A model generated the notes under the pieces. That model saw only the letters and a list, made by a program, of their open reading frames with translations. It was not told the DNA's origin and ran no database searches. From NCBI GenBank assembly GCA_048882385.1, contig JBHLRQ010000090.1, positions 1 to 11,836 of the forward strand: DNA of 11,836 nucleotides, given 5' to 3'. Below, piece by piece: positions 2,576-11,526 of the stretch (positions are counted from its first letter, which is position 1; each line of letters starts with the position of its first letter). A program made the position numbers and the translations under genes. The stretch comes from Candidatus Thorarchaeota archaeon (GTDB lineage Archaea; Asgardarchaeota; Thorarchaeia; Thorarchaeales; Thorarchaeaceae).

Positions 2576-4012
2576 CTACTCTTCTGAGATTCCAACAAGG
2601 TATTTTGCAATCCTCTTCCTCAATTCCAAATCATATCCTTTCAGAATGGCTACATCTTCCATTTGAGGACTTCCACCTCCATGCAGACCAGCCACAGCGG
2701 ATACGCCTCCGATTGATGAACACAGCATATCAGAGAGAGCCCTATAGAGCTTGTATATATCCTCAGAAGGAACATCTTCTTTTCTTTTGAGATATTTCTG
2801 AAGCAGGGGTCCAATCGTTTCGTCATAGAAATCCCCTTCGTGGGGAAGTGTTGCGGGTAGACCTCCTGCCAAATCAGCTAAGATCTCGAGCTCATGATAG
2901 TAGTTCTTTCCAGCATGTTTTCTTCCGACATTACAAAAGACCGTATCAGGAATCATAGTACCTGAATCATCCTTGGTTGCTGTGTGGGCAGCAGCAATTC
3001 CAGCTGCATAGACAAGTTCACTAACACTGATTAAATCTGCAAGTTTGGATTGCACATGTTTCTTATCCTCAATTCCACTATATTCGGTAACTAATGCACT
3101 CATACCTAGGATAATCTCTGAGCTTGCGGGTTTACACCCAGTGTAGCTGTGACGATGATATAGGGCAAAGAGCAATGCTGTCCATCCGCCAAATGCATGT
3201 TCTCCCTCTAGTCCGCCAAGAAAGACACGCTCGTTGGGAACAAAGACATCATCAAAGATTATGAAATTCTCCACATCGCCAAATTCACCCATAGGGCAAG
3301 CAAAGTGCTCTCTCTTATGCCCTGATGCACGTGTTACTAGTTTGACACCATCCCAGTCACCAGGGACTGCGAAGGCGACTGCATATTCATCTTCCTCAGG
3401 CGTTAGCATTCGAGTCGGTGTTACTATGATTTCCTCTGCTACAGCTGCTGCTGTAATGTGATTTTTAGCACCTCTAACAACGATGCCATCATCACGATGT
3501 TCAACTACATGTAAGTAAAGGTCTGGGTCTGCTTGCTGATGAGGTCTCAATGCACGATTGCCCTTCACATCAGTTTGCGCGCAACTGCCTACAATATCAT
3601 TCTCTTGCCAGAATTTTAGATATTCTTTGAATCTCTGATTGTAGGGTTGACCAGTCATGGCTTCAGCCCGATGTGTGATAATGGATAGAGCATTCATAGC
3701 ATCGATGCCCATACAACGAAAAACACAGCCCCCGGTTTGACGACATATCTTTCTTGTAAGCTCTTGTTTCTTAAGCAAGTCATCAACACTCTGGTGGATG
3801 TGAGTAAATCGATTGATGGTACCAAATTCCGGAGATTCCACATTGAGTAACTCCTTGAATTCTGGCTCATCGACCTTATCCAAAGTCAATGCCATTATCT
3901 TGGCAACTGATTGCAATCGTGGATCATCACGGCGAACATTTTCCCCATTGATAATCACGTTTGGCTTCATCTGGTATAGTTTTTGCAGGTATTCTTCTCC
4001 AGTCTTCATCAT
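2576..4012 (-). CDS. abfD: 4-hydroxybutyryl-CoA dehydratase / vinylacetyl-CoA isomerase family protein (FAD, [4Fe-4S])
   Basis: CxxxC in GGCVFRCMGIDA and Hx6C in YHRHSYTGCK match the Cys3His cluster ligands of AbfD. Also QTDVKGNR, DGIVVRGAKNHIT, FDDVFVPNERVFL and HGGGSP. The start is placed at ATG 4012 (MMKTGEEY); the ORF track uses GTG 4027. Confidence 0.85.
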   Translation of the reverse strand: MMKTGEEYLQKLYQMKPNVIINGENVRRDDPRLQSVAKIMALTLDKVDEPEFKELLNVESPEFGTINRFTHIHQSVDDLLKKQELTRKICRQTGGCVFRCMGIDAMNALSIITHRAEAMTGQPYNQRFKEYLKFWQENDIVGSCAQTDVKGNRALRPHQQADPDLYLHVVEHRDDGIVVRGAKNHITAAAVAEEIIVTPTRMLTPEEDEYAVAFAVPGDWDGVKLVTRASGHKREHFACPMGEFGDVENFIIFDDVFVPNERVFLGGLEGEHAFGGWTALLFALYHRHSYTGCKPASSEIILGMSALVTEYSGIEDKKHVQSKLADLISVSELVYAAGIAAAHTATKDDSGTMIPDTVFCNVGRKHAGKNYYHELEILADLAGGLPATLPHEGDFYDETIGPLLQKYLKRKEDVPSEDIYKLYRALSDMLCSSIGGVSAVAGLHGGGSPQMEDVAILKGYDLELRKRIAKYLVGISEE

Positions 4013-4029
4013 AATCAACTGTAACACAC

Positions 4030-4130: not shown

Positions 4131-4514
4131 ATGGCTGACGAAGAGTCCAAATTCAGAAGAAGTCGTGCAAAGGAAATTACTCTCAAATTCATCGAGTGTA
4201 TCAATTCAGGAGACTGCAAGGGACTCATGGACCTTCAGACTGATGACTTCATGTTCATTGACCTATCGGGAAATCGACATATTGGAAAAGACAGCTGGGA
4301 GAACTATTTCACATCATATCCAGACTATAAGATCCATGTTGATAAATTATTAACCAGTGGGAGTGGAGTTGCTGTTTATGGTAGAACAACAGGATCGCAT
4401 GCAGGTCCAGAGATAGATGAAACTTGGAAAATACTATGGACTGCTGGAATTCGTGATGATCAAATTGCAGAGTGGAGAATCTATACCGATTTCTATGACA
4501 TAAAAGGAACTTAG
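4131..4514 (+). CDS. SnoaL-like / NTF2-family small protein
   Basis: 127 aa with an NTF2-like pattern (FIECINSGD..L..LQTDDF.FID, W.NYF..YPDY.I, I.EWRIY.D). GGAG SD at 4121-4124. Confidence 0.8.
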   Translation: MADEESKFRRSRAKEITLKFIECINSGDCKGLMDLQTDDFMFIDLSGNRHIGKDSWENYFTSYPDYKIHVDKLLTSGSGVAVYGRTTGSHAGPEIDETWKILWTAGIRDDQIAEWRIYTDFYDIKGT

Positions 4515-4534: not shown

Positions 4535-5011
4535 CTAGACATTCTCACCGAAGAACATCAGATAATCAGTACCCGGTACATCTATTCCCATGTCACTAAG
4601 GATAATTGCAAGTTGTCCTCGATGGTGCGCGGTATGTAGCAGGTATTGAAGGAAGAAATCAACTACATCAATTTCAAATGGTTCTTCCTTGATATGCTTA
4701 ACCATGATTTTGTCTTGGGGAATTTCCTCGATTGCAGAACTCAAACGAGTATCAAGAACCTCCCAGCGTTTGAGTAATTCCTGCCGTGGGAGTCTCTTGA
4801 CTCTTTCAAAAACAGACTTATCTCTCTCATTCTCGATGAAGTAAAAACAGGTTTCCAAAGCAAGAACAATATGCTGGACTATTGTTTTTGGACTTCTTCC
4901 GTTCACTTCTTGAGAGAACATCTCGGAATCAAAATCGCTAAGAACCTCTCTCATCTTCCAGCCTGCCCAAAGATGATAGTCTGCAAGGTTCTTGAAAACC
5001 ATCTCTCTCAA
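4535..5011 (-). CDS. DinB/YfiT-like family protein (putative metal-dependent thiol S-transferase fold)
   Basis: YHLWA near the N-terminus, QHIV, LHTAHHRGQ and the PGTDY tail. The His triad is present. Start is TTG 5011 or ATG 5002. Confidence 0.85.
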   Translation of the reverse strand: MREMVFKNLADYHLWAGWKMREVLSDFDSEMFSQEVNGRSPKTIVQHIVLALETCFYFIENERDKSVFERVKRLPRQELLKRWEVLDTRLSSAIEEIPQDKIMVKHIKEEPFEIDVVDFFLQYLLHTAHHRGQLAIILSDMGIDVPGTDYLMFFGENV

Positions 5012-5055: not shown

Positions 5056-6027
5056 TTAGCTTGACAGTTCTTCGAGAAGCCCGAGCATCCATTGATCGAT
5101 TGGTTTCTTTCCTGACCATGTTTCTTCGAAAGGTGTCATCACGAGCTCACCATTGACTTCTCCAACCATTCCTCCGTGTTTTCCATTCAATAGGCACTCG
5201 ATCGCATAAGCTCCTAGTCGAGTTGCAAGAATCCTATCGAAATGAGTCGGATTTCCACCCCTCTGTATATATCCAAGGACTGAAACTCTACACTTTTCTC
5301 CAATCTTTTCTGAGAGCGCTTCTCCAATCACATGTGCATTTCCAAGCTCATCACCCTCAGCTACAACAACAAGAACACTCGATTTTGCTCTTTCTCTTGC
5401 TTTGATGACTGTTTCAGCCAGCTCGTCGATTGATGTTTCAGTTTCAGGCATTAGAATTGCAGATGCTCCAGTAGCAAAACCAACATGAAATGCGATATGT
5501 CCAGCATGCCGACCCATGACTTCAACAAGAAAAACTCGTTGGAAAGACTGAGCTGTATCCCGTATCTTGTCAAGCGCTTCTAATGCATTGTTAACAGCAG
5601 TATCGAATCCGATAGTATAATCTGTTCCATAGAGATCGTTGTCTATTGTTCCCGGAAGTCCGATCAACCTACCTTTCCAATGTCTGCTAAGTGCATCCAG
5701 TGCATGCATTGTTCCGTCGCCTCCAATAGCTATCAATGCATCTAATCCTCGTTTGGTTAGAATTCGTGCGGCCTTCTTCTGGCCTTCCTCAGTTCTAAAT
5801 TCTTCAGATCTTCCGGTTGTAAGTATCGTACCGCCTCTATGTAATATCCTGGAGACAGATCTCGAATTCAGTTCATGCATTTGTTCATCGAGAATACCTT
5901 GCAATCCACCGAATACTCCAAAGATTTCACAATTCCGATGAATACCAACTCGTGTGATAGCACGAATGGCGGCATTCATTGCAGGACTATCTCCACCACT
6001 AGTTAGAACTGCAATTCTCATGGGCAT
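5056..6027 (-). CDS. pfkA: ATP-dependent 6-phosphofructokinase, PfkA family
   Basis: LTSGGDSPAMNA, IGGDGT, PGTIDND, IGFDTA, VEVMGRHAG, VAEG and LGYIQRGG. Gly in GGDG and in PGTIDND indicates ATP rather than PPi specificity. Confidence 0.95.
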   Translation of the reverse strand: MPMRIAVLTSGGDSPAMNAAIRAITRVGIHRNCEIFGVFGGLQGILDEQMHELNSRSVSRILHRGGTILTTGRSEEFRTEEGQKKAARILTKRGLDALIAIGGDGTMHALDALSRHWKGRLIGLPGTIDNDLYGTDYTIGFDTAVNNALEALDKIRDTAQSFQRVFLVEVMGRHAGHIAFHVGFATGASAILMPETETSIDELAETVIKARERAKSSVLVVVAEGDELGNAHVIGEALSEKIGEKCRVSVLGYIQRGGNPTHFDRILATRLGAYAIECLLNGKHGGMVGEVNGELVMTPFEETWSGKKPIDQWMLGLLEELSS

Positions 6028-6104
6028 TGTAATAACTCCAGCACAAATAAGTACAACCTATGAAAGATATTTGCATAGAGTTGTCGAGGATGGGACAAGA
6101 GAGA

Positions 6105-6731
6105 ATGCATGGAAAGAGTCCTGAGGAACAAGGAAGAATTGTTCGGGAAGGTTATGATAAGATTGCACAAGACTATGTGGAGCAAAGGGGACAATACTGC
6201 GATGATAGAGAGATTCAGGAGTTTATCGACCTACTACCTGAGAAAGCCAAAGTATTGGACATTGGTTGTGGCGGCGGAGTTCCCATTCTAAAGCTGATGC
6301 TGGAGAAGGGATTCATTGCAACAGGTATTGACTTTTCAAAATCTATGTTAGAACTTGCCAAGAAGAACGTCCCCGAGGCAGAGCTCATTTATGGAGATGT
6401 TACGAAGACAGACTTCGAATCGAATTCTTTTGATGGCATCATCTCCACCTATGCGATTATTCACATTCACAAAAGTCTTCATCCTGTGATATACACACGA
6501 ATCTACAATTGGTTGAAACCAAGTGGTGTGATGCTTATGGGTACATCACATTCAGAGTGGGAAGAGATTGCGGAATATCATGGAGTTGACATGGCTTGGA
6601 GTCATCCAGCTCCGCCTGATAGTCTCCAAATGGTCAGGACTACAGGATTGGAAGTTATCTTCGACCGTCTTGTTCCAACAGGAAATGATGAAACTGTTTA
6701 CTGGATTTTAGCTAAGAAACCATCAGACTAG
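6105..6731 (+). CDS. Class I SAM-dependent methyltransferase
   Basis: GYDKIA, motif I VLDIGCGGG, GIDFSKSML, FDGI and LKPSG. The start is uncertain (ATG 6060, 6090 or 6105); 6105 leaves room for divergent promoters. The 3' end overlaps corA by 9 nt. Confidence 0.88.
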   Translation: MHGKSPEEQGRIVREGYDKIAQDYVEQRGQYCDDREIQEFIDLLPEKAKVLDIGCGGGVPILKLMLEKGFIATGIDFSKSMLELAKKNVPEAELIYGDVTKTDFESNSFDGIISTYAIIHIHKSLHPVIYTRIYNWLKPSGVMLMGTSHSEWEEIAEYHGVDMAWSHPAPPDSLQMVRTTGLEVIFDRLVPTGNDETVYWILAKKPSD

Positions 6732-7679
6732 TCCCTTACGTCTGAGAAATAGAAGTAAAGGCAATGTTATGAATAGGCTTGCAAGCATGACGATAACAAA
6801 TGCAAATGGATCAGCGGCAAAAGGTAAACCGACGTTCATTCCATAAATGCTGGCAATTAAAGTTGGGACACTAACAAGGAGTGAGATTGAAGTCAACGTT
6901 TTGATGACTCTATTCAAGTTGTGACTAACCATACTATCGTATGCATCCATGGCATTCGCAATCAGTTCTCTATAGATATCGCTCAATTCAACCTGCTGTT
7001 GCAAGTCGACCTCAAGTTCCTCCAAGCGATCGACATCCAGAATCATACGTCCAATAATATTGAATCTCTTCAGACGACGAAGAACCTTAATGTTTGCCTT
7101 GAGTGCTGTTTCCATGAAGATTGCGTCACGAGAGAGTTGGAAGAACCACTCAAGTTGTGAGGGATATATCTCCTTCATGATGACATCTTCAGTCGCATTG
7201 ATTGTATCTTCGATGAGGTCGAGTGTGGTTTCAAATGAGTGAATCACAAGCTCCCACCATCTATAGATGACCTCATTTGCTGTTGTACTCAAACGAACCT
7301 TCCGTCGTAGGCGATCCTTTCTCCTCGGAACCTCATCATTCTGTATGACAATAATATCTCGTCCATTTGTGAAAATTCCAATTGGATTTGTCGAATACTC
7401 ACGTTCTTCGACTCTCAGATCAACTGGAACGCGGAGTACTATCATTGTAAATTTATCTTCAATCTGTAATCGTGGACGCTCATCAAGGTCCTGTACATCT
7501 TGCAGATCTTCTAAATCGATTTCAAAACGTTGAGAAATTTTGGTTAAGTCGTTAGGGCGAATGCCTACTATCTCTATGAGCAGTGGTTCATCAGGGGCTT
7601 CTTCCAGGGTGGCATACTTTATTCCGCTCTCCAATGCCATAATGGAGATTCTTCCATTGTCTACTGTGTCGCCGCTCAT
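6723..7679 (-). CDS. corA: CorA-family Mg2+/Co2+ transporter
   Basis: GMN signature (ASIYGMNVGLPF) between two C-terminal TM helices, DLDERPR, and the NLNRVIKTLT stalk. ATG 7679 lies 6 nt after the SD GAGGTG. Confidence 0.93.
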   Translation of the reverse strand: MSGDTVDNGRISIMALESGIKYATLEEAPDEPLLIEIVGIRPNDLTKISQRFEIDLEDLQDVQDLDERPRLQIEDKFTMIVLRVPVDLRVEEREYSTNPIGIFTNGRDIIVIQNDEVPRRKDRLRRKVRLSTTANEVIYRWWELVIHSFETTLDLIEDTINATEDVIMKEIYPSQLEWFFQLSRDAIFMETALKANIKVLRRLKRFNIIGRMILDVDRLEELEVDLQQQVELSDIYRELIANAMDAYDSMVSHNLNRVIKTLTSISLLVSVPTLIASIYGMNVGLPFAADPFAFVIVMLASLFITLPLLLFLRRKGLV

Positions 7680-7803
7680 ATGATCCACCTCGATTAGGGG
7701 GATTGTCTTCGTCCATCGATGATAGCCTGCCTGGAATGGGTTCTTACTAAAAGAAAATCATCTATTAGTTGAACCCCTATAGGTCACATTTGGGAAGACC
7801 CCT
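7680..7803 (-). promoter_or_regulatory. Structured 5' leader of corA, candidate cis-regulatory RNA
   Basis: Hairpin 7738-7776, anti-SD hairpin 7683-7703, and alternative pairings 7774-7779/7695-7700 and 7794-7799/7705-7710. Function is inferred; no known family was recognised. Confidence 0.45.
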
Positions 7804-7907
7804 TCTGCCTTTTAGGGTTTTGTAATAGCGTGAAATGCGTTTGTGTTGCTTGCAGCACCAAAACAATAAAGGTCGTCGACCTATAGATTAACATTGGAGA
7901 TGTCTGT

Positions 7908-10064
7908 TTGAGGACTAGATGGTTTTCCATCTTACTGATTGTAGGTCTTATAGTATGTAGTCTTCAAACCATCCAAGTCACTTCTAATGGATTGGAATTA
8001 CCAGAGTCTGGTCCGTATATCGACAAAATAGTGTACGTTGTCATTCCAGATCCTGGTCTGAGATTGCTTGCATTGCAAGCAGGTACAGTGGATATGGATC
8101 TTACCTTTGTGGATTCTTCCATAGTACTTAACTCACTTGAAAATCCAGATATTGATTTCTACACGCCTCCGAGAAACGGATATGGTCAAATCACATTTAA
8201 TTGTCGTAAATATCCACTCAACATTACAGGATTCCGACGTGCTTTCGCATATGCTCTCGATAAGGAGAATGTTGCACATGAGCAACTAAAAGGATTCTAT
8301 CGAATGCATGATTCTCTTGTTCCTTATGCCAATCCTTTCTGTATCGAGGAAGATCTCAATTGGCATTGGTACGGAACAGGAGGTTTACCAGATATTGGTA
8401 ATGCATTGCTTGATGGTCTAAATTTTGAAATCAACACTGATACTGGCTTTAGGGATGCTCCGAACGGGAAACCATTCAGTATTGATATAGGATATGCGGG
8501 GTTTGAAAATGATCAAGTTGCGTTTATTGCCGCCAATACTCTAAATGATCTTCATATCAACGTAAGTAACGTGCAATCGTATCCTTTCTGGAAGAAATTA
8601 TATTCCCCCTTCGATGATTTCAATATGGTAGTAAATGATAGAGATTTTCCTGATTATGATATCCGATGGCTAGTTTCAGAATATAGCTCTGAGAACACAG
8701 ATAATTCCAAGATTAATCCCTCAGGATTCTCTAATAGCACGTATGATAATTGGGGACAGAAGCTCCTTCATAGTACTAGCTATGAGGAAGTCTTTGAAGC
8801 AGCTGCAGAAATGCAGAGGATACTAAATTATGAAGTTCCAAGTATTGTATCATATCAAAACCTCTACGTACAATTGTATAGGGCTGATAGGTTCAAGGGA
8901 CAGGTTGAAGATCTTGGTCAAGGTGTCACAGGTTTCTGGACAATGTTGAATATTCAGAAATTTGATGAAACTTTGGGAGGTGCCCTGCTAGTTGCTATTG
9001 ACCAAGAACCTGATAGTTTCAATTTCTTTGTGGCAGAATCTAATGCATCGAAAACCATGCTAAACAAAATGCATCTTGGATTATATACAAGATCGTCGGA
9101 TTTAGAGCTCTTTCCAATGCTTGCTGAACAGATGATAATCGAAACACACAAGGACAATGAAGATGTTCCAGTAAATCACACACGTTTCACTATTGATTTG
9201 AGGAATGATAGATATTGGACGGATGATGCCCCAGTCACTGCAGAAGATGTATCATTCACATTCAACTATATCTTGGAGAGTCGTCTCGAAGGTAATCCTG
9301 CATCTGAAGACTTGACAGACATTGTTTCAATCTATTCACCATCAACATACAGAGTCATTTTCGAGTTCAGCACAGAGTCCTATTGGCATTTTGAGAAGTT
9401 TGCGTATGACTATATTCTGCCAAAGCATATCTTTGAAGAGGGTTCATATACCGAGTTAGGATTTGAAGAATGGAACGATTGGAATCCAATATTCAATCCT
9501 GCTGATCCAAGTCTGACTTGTGGACCATTTCATATGACAGATTATGAACAAGATGAATTCTTCGAGCTGTCTTTTAGTCCTAATTGGATAGCAAGCAGAT
9601 ACAATTATGAATTTCACTTCAGTGATGTTAGTGTATCACCTGCAGATGATTTCAATAGTTTATTTCCATTCTTCACTGTAACATGGGATCTGGTTTGGAC
9701 TCCTGATGATTATATCCTACCACCAACTTTTGATTATGAGATTTTTCTGGACGGAGCATATTTTGCATCACAAACATGGCATTACGCCTATTGGGCAGGT
9801 GGAGGACCAGATTCAATTAGTATTCACATCGGCGATCCATATTTGTTTCAAGGGACTCATAATGTCACAATAATTGTGTATACACTGTTTCATGGACTTG
9901 AACTTGATACCGTGATGGTGACTGTCCAGATTTCAATGTATCAGATTACACCTTTCGTTGGTTTTGCTATCGGATGCGGTCTTTTTGGTGTAATCTACCT
10001 ATTTGTGAAGATGATAAGGGAAATGGTATCACCAGATATCCAGAAAGGATTACAGATTGAATAA
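7908..10064 (+). CDS. Family-5 (OppA/DppA-like) extracellular solute-binding protein, circularly permuted, with C-terminal Ig-like domain and TM anchor
   Basis: Signal peptide; motifs IDKIVYVVIPD..LALQAGTVD, FRRAFAYALDK, GGALLVAIDQEPDSFN, WTDDAPVTAEDVSFTF and CGPF; C-terminal hydrophobic helix. TTG start follows GGAG. Confidence 0.88.
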   Translation: MRTRWFSILLIVGLIVCSLQTIQVTSNGLELPESGPYIDKIVYVVIPDPGLRLLALQAGTVDMDLTFVDSSIVLNSLENPDIDFYTPPRNGYGQITFNCRKYPLNITGFRRAFAYALDKENVAHEQLKGFYRMHDSLVPYANPFCIEEDLNWHWYGTGGLPDIGNALLDGLNFEINTDTGFRDAPNGKPFSIDIGYAGFENDQVAFIAANTLNDLHINVSNVQSYPFWKKLYSPFDDFNMVVNDRDFPDYDIRWLVSEYSSENTDNSKINPSGFSNSTYDNWGQKLLHSTSYEEVFEAAAEMQRILNYEVPSIVSYQNLYVQLYRADRFKGQVEDLGQGVTGFWTMLNIQKFDETLGGALLVAIDQEPDSFNFFVAESNASKTMLNKMHLGLYTRSSDLELFPMLAEQMIIETHKDNEDVPVNHTRFTIDLRNDRYWTDDAPVTAEDVSFTFNYILESRLEGNPASEDLTDIVSIYSPSTYRVIFEFSTESYWHFEKFAYDYILPKHIFEEGSYTELGFEEWNDWNPIFNPADPSLTCGPFHMTDYEQDEFFELSFSPNWIASRYNYEFHFSDVSVSPADDFNSLFPFFTVTWDLVWTPDDYILPPTFDYEIFLDGAYFASQTWHYAYWAGGGPDSISIHIGDPYLFQGTHNVTIIVYTLFHGLELDTVMVTVQISMYQITPFVGFAIGCGLFGVIYLFVKMIREMVSPDIQKGLQIE

Positions 10065-10089: not shown

Positions 10090-11403
10090 CTATATGATGA
10101 CACTCTCTACCTCGACATCCCTATCCTTGATACTGAGCGTTGTTGAAGGAATTTTTTTGCCGCCAAAGAGTTCTGCTTCAGCTTCTCCACGATAGAGAGC
10201 ATCTGCAATACGACCCATGGCATCTGCCTTCATTATACCTGAACCACTTGCTCCATTCACAACGAGTACACCACATTCAAGATAAACGAATGGAATTCGA
10301 TCGGGACTGTAATTATATCCACCAGCCCAGCTGTTCACGGGTCTTGCTCCTTGGAATGCAGGGAAGTATTTCGAGAGAACTGGATACATACTGTTTTCAT
10401 AGTATGCACTTTCAGGGACCATGTCTTCGTCGGTCTGAAGGTACTTGTAGGCTCTACCAACCTTGTCTCCGCATCCAATCCAAAATCCTCGTTCTTGAAG
10501 CTGTGGTCTGAAGTAGACTCCAGCTGAGGGCAAGATGGTAAATGGGATACATCCAAGTTCGTTGAATCCTTTCACATCAAGAAGATCTTGCAGGTCTTCT
10601 TTATCCTCTGCATGAATGACGAAGAGTTGACGCTTCTTTCCCTTGGTCAAGCTATCGATTCCAATTGGATCCAGAAGCTGGTTCGTCCATGCTCCTGTAG
10701 CCAACACGACTACATTAGCTCTAAAGGTTCCCTTGTTGGTGACTACTCCATTCACCTTCTTCTTTTGCCAAACAAAAGGCTCTCCAGGTAAGTCGAGCTT
10801 CGGCTCGGCCTCCAGAAGTAGTTTCTCAACATCAACTCCAAATCTTGGTTTAACATGAGACAACTTTGTGAACTCTTGAAAGTAGTACTCAACTAATCTG
10901 GTTGGGTCGAGAACACCACAATCAGCGCCGAAGAGACCGTAACTCACCTCTTGGAGGTTCATGAGCTCTGCTTCTTCATCATTTGAAAAATCAATGTTGA
11001 GACCTGGAATCATACTTTTGAGTTCTTCTTTGTTGTAAACCTTGTAACTAATTCCGGATTTTTCCATTCGTTCCATCCATACTTTGACACTCGCATGGTT
11101 GAACTGTTCGTCACTAAGTAACCAGAGATATCCTGTCTTCTCAAAAAACAAATCATAACCCAACTCGTTTTGAACATGTTCGAAATATTTGATGGAAGTG
11201 TCGGTCAGCAATTGATTCGTAGATGAGGCAAACATGTTACGAACTGCAGCTGCGCTCATTGCAGTGTTTGCCTGCCCTGCAGCTAGGGTTCTGTCAACTA
11301 GTAGTATCTTTTTGTCAGGACTGTTTTTCTGCAGATAGTAAGCGGTAGCCACTCCAAGACAACCAGCACCCACAACAATGACATCAAAGGTCTCTTCGCT
11401 CAC
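10090..11403 (-). CDS. FAD-dependent oxidoreductase (DAO superfamily), similar to the Aeropyrum/Pyrobaculum-type dye-linked L-proline dehydrogenase
   Basis: FDVIVVGAGCLG dinucleotide motif, GEPFVWQ, GAWTNQLLDPIGID, KKRQLF, WAGGY and GASGSGIMKADAMGR. GTG 11403 follows a GGAGG SD, so the ORF track's extra 35 residues are probably not translated. Confidence 0.85.
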   Translation of the reverse strand: MSEETFDVIVVGAGCLGVATAYYLQKNSPDKKILLVDRTLAAGQANTAMSAAAVRNMFASSTNQLLTDTSIKYFEHVQNELGYDLFFEKTGYLWLLSDEQFNHASVKVWMERMEKSGISYKVYNKEELKSMIPGLNIDFSNDEEAELMNLQEVSYGLFGADCGVLDPTRLVEYYFQEFTKLSHVKPRFGVDVEKLLLEAEPKLDLPGEPFVWQKKKVNGVVTNKGTFRANVVVLATGAWTNQLLDPIGIDSLTKGKKRQLFVIHAEDKEDLQDLLDVKGFNELGCIPFTILPSAGVYFRPQLQERGFWIGCGDKVGRAYKYLQTDEDMVPESAYYENSMYPVLSKYFPAFQGARPVNSWAGGYNYSPDRIPFVYLECGVLVVNGASGSGIMKADAMGRIADALYRGEAEAELFGGKKIPSTTLSIKDRDVEVESVII

Positions 11404-11526
11404 AACGAATGCCTCCGGTTGAAAGCCGCGTGAAACAAGCCCCCTAAAATGTTTATCATTTACTATATAACCATCAAACAAATATGGGAGAAATTCAAGA
11501 TAATACAAGCTACAGAGGAGGATAGC

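Follow-up and report, generated by a model that had tools for sequence, protein, structure and literature searches.

A conserved upstream open reading frame across the corA ribosome-binding site in Thorarchaeota: a candidate for translational control

The leader of a corA gene, and a short upstream open reading frame (uORF) within it, are considered here in a stretch of 11,836 nucleotides (nt) from the metagenome-assembled genome of a Candidatus Thorarchaeota archaeon, a member of the Asgard archaea (GenBank assembly GCA_048882385.1, contig JBHLRQ010000090.1), hereafter the window. The gene occupies 6723..7679 of the minus strand, stop codon included, and encodes 318 amino acids; its match to the Pfam CorA family (E 3.6e-42) bears out the identification made in a preliminary description of this DNA, which had proposed a metal-responsive RNA switch upstream of the gene. 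The ATG lies at 7679-7677 and the Shine-Dalgarno (SD) sequence GAGGUG at 7691-7686, where it pairs with CACCUC of the 16S rRNA 3′ end, which in this genus reads ...GGAUCACCUCCU (four same-genus genomes). The upstream neighbor is a divergent SBP_bac_5 gene on the plus strand (7908-10064), with 228 nt between both genes. The corA leader is unusually long, as that description had it, and is conserved and regulatory in appearance; all of the pairing strings and the SD that it quoted are found at their minus-strand coordinates. The uORF is also on the minus strand (7591..7716), in the +1 frame relative to corA, and runs for 41 codons (MDEDNPPNRGGSYE...) from an ATG at 7716-7714 to a TGA at 7593-7591. 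It crosses the corA SD, the start codon and the first 28 corA codons, ends about 85 nt inside the gene, and is physically linked to the corA ribosome-binding site (RBS) in that it reads through 7691-7686 and the ATG at 7679, its codons 5-7 forming a strand complementary to the SD (the anti-SD strand).

Of 24 same-genus genomes drawn, 22 contain a corA orthologue (68-88% identity), and a family-wide protein search turned up orthologues with 56-72% identity in a further 12 genera. Same-genus leaders were collected through the protein orthologue search, an order-wide DNA search with the leader core (three extra leaders), genome contigs (26 loci) and metagenome contigs (20 loci); pooled over -60..+66 they give 43 rows, of which 34 are distinct (33 same-genus leaders and one outgroup). 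Alignment A1 comprises 31 rows, with L006 (one-codon deletion), L035 (truncated) and L076 (the outgroup) omitted, and L005 was dropped as too short. The corA SD is nearly invariant in this alignment. From other genera of the family 32 upstream regions were fetched. Counts out of 48 refer to distinct leaders with the promoter motif CTAWAAG, drawn from the same genus (g1) and from g24, g25, g26 and g29; the 17 leaders with no recognizable CTAWAAG, which are left out of these counts, are one truncated same-genus leader and 16 from g15, g16, g17, g19, g20, g22, g27 and g28. A DNA search of 87 genomes of the order with an 81-nt core gave real matches in the same genus only, the four best matches outside it (L055-L058) lying inside unrelated coding sequence.

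The position of the uORF start is fixed with respect to corA. The ATG stands exactly 37 nt before the corA ATG in 33/33 distinct same-genus leaders, with no insertion or deletion in the spacing, and the bases flanking this invariant triplet are variable (-38, -34). The frame is open for 34-47 codons in all 19 of the orthologues first examined and for at least 20 codons in 32/32 same-genus leaders, one metagenomic leader having 20. The arrangement extends to other genera in related forms. In g29 an ATG occurs at -37 in 3/3 leaders though the intervening sequence differs (MSAIRNCIRGGY), and an ATG at -19 in the same frame is present in g24 (1/1) and g25 (7/10), where it encodes ME.GELDDD. In the remaining three g25 leaders the -19 triplet is CTG, and there is a 16-codon uORF whose stop falls inside the corA SD. 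Altogether, a uORF overlapping or abutting the corA RBS is found in 46 of the 48 distinct promoter-bearing leaders.

Several lines of evidence are consistent with translation of this frame. Over codons 2-8 the synonymous share of codon differences is 419/1853 (22.6%) in the uORF frame versus 182/1668 (10.9%) and 125/1686 (7.4%) in the other frames, and the CorA tree requires 20, 13 and 37 parsimony steps for first, second and third codon positions, respectively. All four of the most variable uORF sites are third positions (p about 0.006 by our own arithmetic, if sites were assigned randomly), and Arg codons swap between CGA and AGA at codons 4 and 9; this coding-type pattern rests on seven codons outside the SD and the overlap, with correspondingly low statistical power. 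Within the overlap, synonymous-codon entropy of corA is 0.36 bits for codons 2-12, compared with 1.33 bits for codons 30-318. Nine nt upstream of the uORF ATG is a G-rich element, AGGCAGGC (7725..7732, minus strand), identical in 32 of 33 distinct same-genus leaders and replaced by AGGAAGGC in the other; we regard it as a candidate, imperfect SD for the uORF (AGGcAGG), readable as AGGAGG with one bulged C opposite CCUCC of 16S rRNA. The corresponding strings before the uORF ATG are good SDs in g25 (GAGGUGA-N6) and g24 (AGGUG-N10), compared with AGGcAGG-N9 in the same genus and UGGGU-N9 in g29. The uORF peptide has no Pfam match. Its start is acidic and followed by proline in 17 of 29 distinct same-genus uORF starts (16 MDE[DEG][NH]PP and one MDERHPQS), and is ME.GELDDD in g24 and g25; the acidic/proline start is absent from the MY/MH clade and from g29.

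Other small reading frames were also noted. Among corA orthologues without the promoter motif, inspection by eye of L124 (g20), L139 (g15), L141 (g22) and L080/L033 (a paralogue clade) showed uORFs of 6-7 codons that span the SD and whose TGA overlaps the start codon (ATGA/GTGA), an arrangement of the termination-reinitiation type, and L133 has a bare ATG-TAG. A mini-ORF of the form ATG-AGG/GGG-TGA, which amounts to an SD-like GAGGUGA after AU, recurs in L116, L117, L123 and L127 (g25) and in L145 (g19), and may simply be a by-product of the SD sequence.

Upstream of these elements the leader carries a conserved motif resembling a B recognition element and TATA box (BRE/TATA), TATTACAAAACCCTAAAAGG (7827-7808, minus strand), which was kept in 19/19 orthologues first aligned. 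In further same-genus leaders the only variable base is that between ACAAAAC and CTAWAAG, and a match to CTA[AT]A[AC]G is present in 32/32 distinct same-genus leaders reaching far enough, as well as in g24, g25, g26 and g29, where the core AAAACCCTAWAAG recurs. The motif resembles BRE/TATA-like strings located 25-40 nt upstream of the organism's own tRNA genes (for example CAAAACCATTATATCC and GGAAGGCCTTAAGAG), is far better conserved than the general promoter pattern at those genes, and is no genome-wide repeat, since AAACCCTAAAAGG occurs once in the genome. We consider it a candidate corA promoter (P1), possibly overlapped by the site of a regulator. A spacing of about 30 nt between TATA box and transcription start site (TSS) is typical of archaea and is compatible with TATA-to-tRNA distances in this genome; counted from the C (7815) of CTAAAAGG, it places the TSS in the region 7780..7790 of the minus strand, at about 7785, where a semi-conserved TGAGAC/GTGACC is found. 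The corA mRNA thus probably starts near 7785, with a leader of about 106 nt. The TATA guess of the preliminary description and its TSS near 7787 fit this motif, conserved across five genera; its TATA-like string is present but was placed off by one base, 7814-7808 reading UAAAAGG. A second, proximal promoter in or near hairpin A, which would make the uORF almost leaderless, was considered by eye; the distal motif is preferred because the AT-rich strings there, such as CACAGAAGGAACCC, are not conserved.

Between the presumed TSS and the uORF lies hairpin A (7776-7738, minus strand), with an outer stem GGGUUC (7776-7771)/GAACCC (7743-7738) and an inner stem ACUAA/UUAGU. Among the structures of the leader that were compared with chance, it is the only one to stand out: the region 7780-7736 has a minimum free energy (MFE) of -15.8 kcal/mol against -6.3 +/- 2.3 kcal/mol for 300 dinucleotide shuffles (z -4.2), none of which folds as well, and pair probabilities in the hairpin are at least 0.99. 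The leaders are of three types. In the type to which the window belongs, GGGUUC...GAACCC encloses an inner stem whose sequence differs between species and always pairs; the second type folds into three small hairpins, of which the last ends in GAGAACC; and in the short type (n=7) about 37 nt are missing and hairpin A is deleted, leaving that part unstructured (MFE 0 to -1.2 kcal/mol) and the remaining leader kept. Variation in the outer stem includes GGCUC/GAGCC in L107 (U-A to C-G) with a U.G intermediate in L020, and the hairpin is remodeled in a third clade. A GGUUC/GAACC-type outer stem occurs in 22 of the 48 distinct leaders (g1 12/32, g25 6/10, g29 3/3, g26 1/2, g24 0/1), and its 3′ end is 59-61 nt before the start codon in 21 of the 22 that carry it. 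On the CorA tree the window's leader type is found on the deepest branch and in the crown, and the short type is nested inside the crown, which indicates that the short type arose by loss. Hairpin A, rightly recognized in the preliminary description as a real structure and now seen to recur across genera, is therefore old and evolutionarily maintained, yet dispensable in one lineage. Two smaller observations concern the same element. The spacing of the GAACC arm to the corA start is fixed in g1, g25 and g29 despite differing intervening sequence, and the loop of the window's hairpin (7749-7757, minus strand) contains the oligo-U run UUUUCUUUU, which is not conserved in other leaders; oligo-U runs can terminate archaeal RNA polymerase.

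The region around the corA RBS itself is notable for how little structure it holds. A core of about 57 nt (7736-7680) is near-invariant, mean column identity over -60..+66 being 86%, and it is less structured than its dinucleotide shuffles (z +1.8 in the window, mean z +1.1, above zero in 29 of 33 orthologues), a property that fits an accessible initiation region and not an aptamer. Within it the anti-SD strand forms a weak hairpin at 7703-7683 of the minus strand (AUCCCCCU at 7703-7696 with AGGUGGAU at 7690-7683), the 5′ arm of which is uORF codons 5-7. Folded alone, this hairpin has a free energy of -4.2 to -8.9 kcal/mol and, except in L023 and L054, which fold differently, and L107, which is shifted, adopts the canonical register (30 of 33 orthologues); in the RNAalifold consensus over -58..+60 it is the only upstream helix (-4.0 kcal/mol), accompanied by a small hairpin inside the coding sequence. 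The pairing noted in the preliminary description thus exists, with a probability of 0.5-0.7, but the burial of the SD ascribed to it does not exceed chance and the helix shows no covariation. The fraction of alignment cells paired, 80.9%, equals the shuffle mean of 80.9%, and one pair shows a two-sided change. In L054 both sides of one pair are altered to give a U.U mismatch, and no compensatory change was found. When the upstream leader was shuffled with the SD held fixed and the SD-unpaired probability expressed as a percentile, burial of the SD was no greater than in shuffled leaders (percentile 0.30 for the window, median 0.6, at or below 0.1 in 3/32 same-genus leaders). The hairpin therefore gives no evidence of designed sequestration, because a G-rich SD finds partners in almost any leader.

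Pairing beyond the core was also considered. Long-range duplexes between the UUCCAGGCAGGC... segment and the corA mRNA were rejected, the best positions being scattered, as was a recurrent site near +234, which depends on variable synonymous positions (GUGCCUGU) and is missing from the window. The small hairpin of the consensus within corA, AAUGGA-N6-UCCAUU (7658-7641, minus strand, codons 8-13), has one compensatory change (U-A to C-G in L020) with 81.7% of cells paired, not above shuffles, and may add to the freezing of synonymous sites in corA codons 2-12.

We propose, tentatively and with confidence that falls somewhat short of even, that corA is subject to uORF-based translational control, which would be functionally analogous to control by corL, mgtL and mgtQ of enterobacteria. 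In the proposed mechanism hairpin A would be 5′-proximal in the mRNA, followed by an unstructured segment acting as a second translation-initiation region (AGGcAGG and the AUG at 7716). Since ribosomes starting at AUG 7716 cross the corA SD and AUG, they would compete with initiation at corA, ribosomes elongating along the uORF occupying the corA RBS. A ribosome located on the first uORF codons would open the anti-SD hairpin, with codons 5-7 held inside the ribosome and the SD left free, and the output of corA would presumably be set by the efficiency of uORF initiation and elongation. In the window's clade, in which the peptide begins MDEDNPPN, the acidic residues followed by Pro-Pro could make corA translation responsive to Mg2+ by way of the ribosome, with no RNA aptamer involved. 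On this more specific proposal Thorarchaeota would sense Mg2+ via the ribosome, translation of MDEDNPPN... aborting or stalling at low Mg2+ so as to open the corA RBS and raise CorA; we judge it improbable, given that other clades have kept the uORF but lack the acidic/proline motif.

A number of observations weigh against uORF-based control. An overlapping uORF is absent from both g26 leaders, CTG replaces ATG at -19 in 3/10 g25 leaders, and the uORF SD is imperfect in the same genus. The uORF N-termini differ by clade (MDEDNPPN, MYERHPLS, MHETHLHT, MHQPHLLL, and MSAIRNCI in g29), such that a peptide-specific acidic/proline mechanism cannot be general. At the codon level, third positions of uORF codons 2, 3 and 5 hardly vary, contrary to what coding constraint alone would predict, and some of the same variable sites are accounted for by the weak hairpin's geometry (mismatch, terminal pair, loop). 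That the alternative frame stays open within corA is not significant by itself, there being 19-31 stops per 318 codons; a stop occurs about once per 12 codons, with 60-codon gaps elsewhere in the gene. An upstream ATG within 40 nt is likewise not rare, about 0.7 being expected from base composition by our own arithmetic. Depletion of other upstream ATGs (25 in 4945 nt) is ambiguous, as it is matched by an equal scarcity of AGT, a permutation of the same bases. Finally, the frozen corA codons 2-12 could reflect the hairpin at 7658-7641 or a general constraint on initiation instead.

One alternative, advanced in the preliminary description, is an Mg2+/Co2+ riboswitch in which hairpin A and the anti-SD hairpin make up an OFF state and the SD is freed in an ON state by helix (c), CCCCUA (7700-7695) with UAGGGG (7779-7774), or by helix (d), GUCUUC (7799-7794) with GAAGAC (7710-7705), all on the minus strand. 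The complementary strings all exist, hairpin A is genuine and ancient, window-type leaders have both a G-run 5′ of hairpin A and the C-run of the anti-SD strand, and bacterial Mg2+ transporter leaders are often RNA sensors, a gammaproteobacterial 'corA motif' being listed as a riboswitch candidate (PMC6429828). Against this, the leader as a whole folds no better than dinucleotide shuffles: for 7810-7670 (141 nt) z is -0.04 and 93/200 shuffles fold at least as well, and for 7787-7660, from the presumed start to +20, z is -0.3. Helix (c) has a probability of 0.00 at all six pairs, would have to break the -15.8 kcal/mol hairpin for 6 bp, and joins a C-run to a G-run, a trivial pairing; neither the third leader type nor the seven short-type leaders that keep the conserved core have its UAGGGG arm, the latter lacking hairpin A as well. 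Helix (d) has its 5′ arm (7799-7794) in a non-conserved spacer upstream of the presumed TSS near 7785, and the helix would then not be transcribed. Mutually exclusive alternative structures are thus not conserved, the 5′ arms of (c) and (d) being missing or different in other leaders, and hairpin A, lost in one lineage, cannot serve as an indispensable half of a switch that is itself conserved. The leader matches no Rfam family: an Rfam 15 cmscan of window positions 7400-8200 at E up to 10 gave only psbNH at 7913-7974, which is outside the leader and weak (15.7 bits against a gathering score of 45), and a scan of ten other leaders at E up to 1 gave only a fragment of a long non-coding RNA (18 bits). 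These scans took in M-box, Mg_sensor and NiCo as far as they are in release 15, and neither the window leader nor the ten others has a covariance-model match to a metal or Mg2+ riboswitch family. The relevant families, which we take to be M-box (ykoK), the Salmonella mgtA Mg sensor and NiCo (czcD), share with this leader, as does the corA motif, its place before a gene for a divalent-cation transporter and the presence of an SD-pairing strand; they differ from it in that the corA leader here has no covariance-model match, no excess stability and no covariation, and its core is under-structured. Folding equal to that of shuffles, and switch helices that lack both conservation and covariation, are outcomes that the preliminary description itself named as contrary to the model; they weaken the riboswitch to the point that we hold it highly improbable, and the leader should not be catalogued as a riboswitch candidate. 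A model of interlocking helices drawn by eye in a leader rich in G- and C-runs fails once shuffling and comparative controls are applied.

A more substantial alternative to uORF-based control is a constitutive leader that senses nothing, in which promoter, 5′ stabilizing hairpin and initiation region set a fixed, low level of CorA, the upstream ATG is unused or acts as a constant damper, and CorA is regulated at the level of the protein by Mg2+ gating, as bacterial CorA structures show for the channel. No result presented here shows dependence on a signal, the uORF peptide varies by clade, SD sequestration is at the level of chance and hairpin A can be lost, all of which a constitutive leader would accommodate; however, some 57 nt of near-invariant leader together with a 20-nt promoter motif kept in five genera exceed what is usual for such a leader, and the uORF ATG and frame persist across genera while their surroundings turn over. 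We consider this explanation rather unlikely, and grant it more weight than one in which the core (UUCCAGGCAGGC...AUGGACGAAGA), the promoter motif or both are sites for a trans-acting regulator (an RNA-binding protein, a small RNA or a transcription factor) and the ATG is conserved as part of a binding site. Nucleotide-level conservation of AGGCAGGC and of the surroundings of the ATG (third codon positions 7711, 7708 and 7702 among them), a core kept single-stranded, and a promoter motif conserved well beyond the tRNA-gene pattern are what such a factor would predict. Yet the block has no dyad symmetry by inspection, genome counts reveal no visible regulon (GGCAGGCTATCATC occurs once and CCAGGCAGGC five times, against 2.6 expected), g25 and g29 have other G-rich strings in place of AGGCAGGC yet retain the uORF, and the partner for long-range mRNA pairing is not conserved; we regard a trans-acting factor as a poor prospect.

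Viewed against known systems, the leader is no member of any Rfam riboswitch family and appears most like the leader-peptide systems of bacterial Mg2+ transporters, by analogy. In the corA leader of E. coli, corL is translated in inverse relation to corA expression and in response to Mg2+ (PMC11552253). The likeness to corL of E. coli and Salmonella enterica lies in a short ORF within a long corA leader and in the logic proposed here, corL translation rising with Mg2+; the bacterial system uses alternative leader structures and Rho-dependent termination (PMC11552253), whereas no strong alternative structures occur here. The uORF also differs from corL in overlapping the corA SD and start codon, and Rfam scans found no sequence relation between the two, so that the comparison is one of analogy and not of membership. 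In Salmonella, the Asp2 and Glu5 codons of mgtQ control mgtB translation via an RBS-sequestering stem-loop (PMC8092293). More generally, N-terminal sequences rich in Asp, Glu and Pro are described as destabilizing ribosomes (bioRxiv 10.1101/2021.02.02.429294), and acidic/proline starts as destabilizing or stalling E. coli and Salmonella ribosomes at low Mg2+, the basis of mgtL and mgtQ control (PMC8092293; bioRxiv 10.1101/2021.02.02.429294). With mgtQ-mgtB and mgtL-mgtA the present locus shares a tiny ORF before an Mg2+ transporter gene, acidic first residues (Asp2 and Glu5 in mgtQ, Asp2-Glu3-Asp4 here) with proline nearby, a transporter RBS that can pair with a strand inside the small ORF and, as proposed here, translational control. 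The differences are that mgtQ has 8 codons and ends before mgtB whereas the uORF has 41 and enters corA, and that the acidic/proline start is found here in part of the family only (MDE..., ME.GELDDD) and not in the MYERHPLS clade or g29; a part for ribosomal protein L31 and dependence on Mg2+ are features of the bacterial system.

Translation attenuation of the ermC type offers a further point of comparison. The overlapping-uORF RBS occlusion and translation attenuation of bacteria (PMC13285730) resemble the present case in that a uORF with its own RBS, here a candidate one, lies over or ends at the main RBS. Among archaea, ribosome profiling (Ribo-seq) of Haloferax volcanii has revealed many small ORFs in 5′ untranslated regions that abut or enter the downstream gene; that study demonstrates no function for them and only notes the resemblance (PMC10117724). 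The literature searched yielded no archaeal overlapping uORF with a demonstrated regulatory effect, and no report of a corA leader, riboswitch or regulatory uORF in Asgard archaea, subscription journals lying mostly outside that search. Little is known of cis-regulatory leaders in archaea, and next to nothing in Asgard archaea. A uORF that proved to be translated and to tune corA would constitute a clear, testable case of leader-peptide control in an archaeon, and would suggest that the coupling of Mg2+ transporter synthesis to ribosome performance evolved separately in bacteria and archaea. Should Mg2+ sensing also hold, the system would be a convergent archaeal counterpart of mgtL, corL and mgtQ, purely translational and operating without Rho, embedded in a leader conserved across the family that also keeps the ancient hairpin A. 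Rho is, to our knowledge, absent from archaea.

Elsewhere in the genome, which is 95% complete, no match to MgtE (PF01769) was found. A second CorA paralogue (L001) has an intergenic region of 125 nt, with no upstream ORF of at least 20 codons overlapping its start. The neighbors of corA in the window, as annotated by Pfam, have no obvious link to metal homeostasis; they comprise a branched-chain amino acid permease component and periplasmic binding protein (34-2407), an HpaB-like hydroxylase (2576-4027), SnoaL-like (4131-4514) and DinB-like (4535-5011) proteins, a phosphofructokinase (5056-6027), a methyltransferase (6060-6731) and an FAD-dependent oxidoreductase (10090-11508). For the divergent gene at 7908-10064 the first listed start is a TTG. 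An element at 7858-7873 (minus strand CCTTTATTGTTTTGG, plus strand CCAAAACAATAAAGG) is conserved only in loci with the divergent SBP_bac_5 neighbor, resembles the element upstream of tRNA-Tyr (CCTTTTATTGTT), and is probably the promoter of that gene. Only 22 tRNAs were found in the 256-contig assembly, and ARAGORN calls a tRNA-SeC on contig C4 near position 5427.

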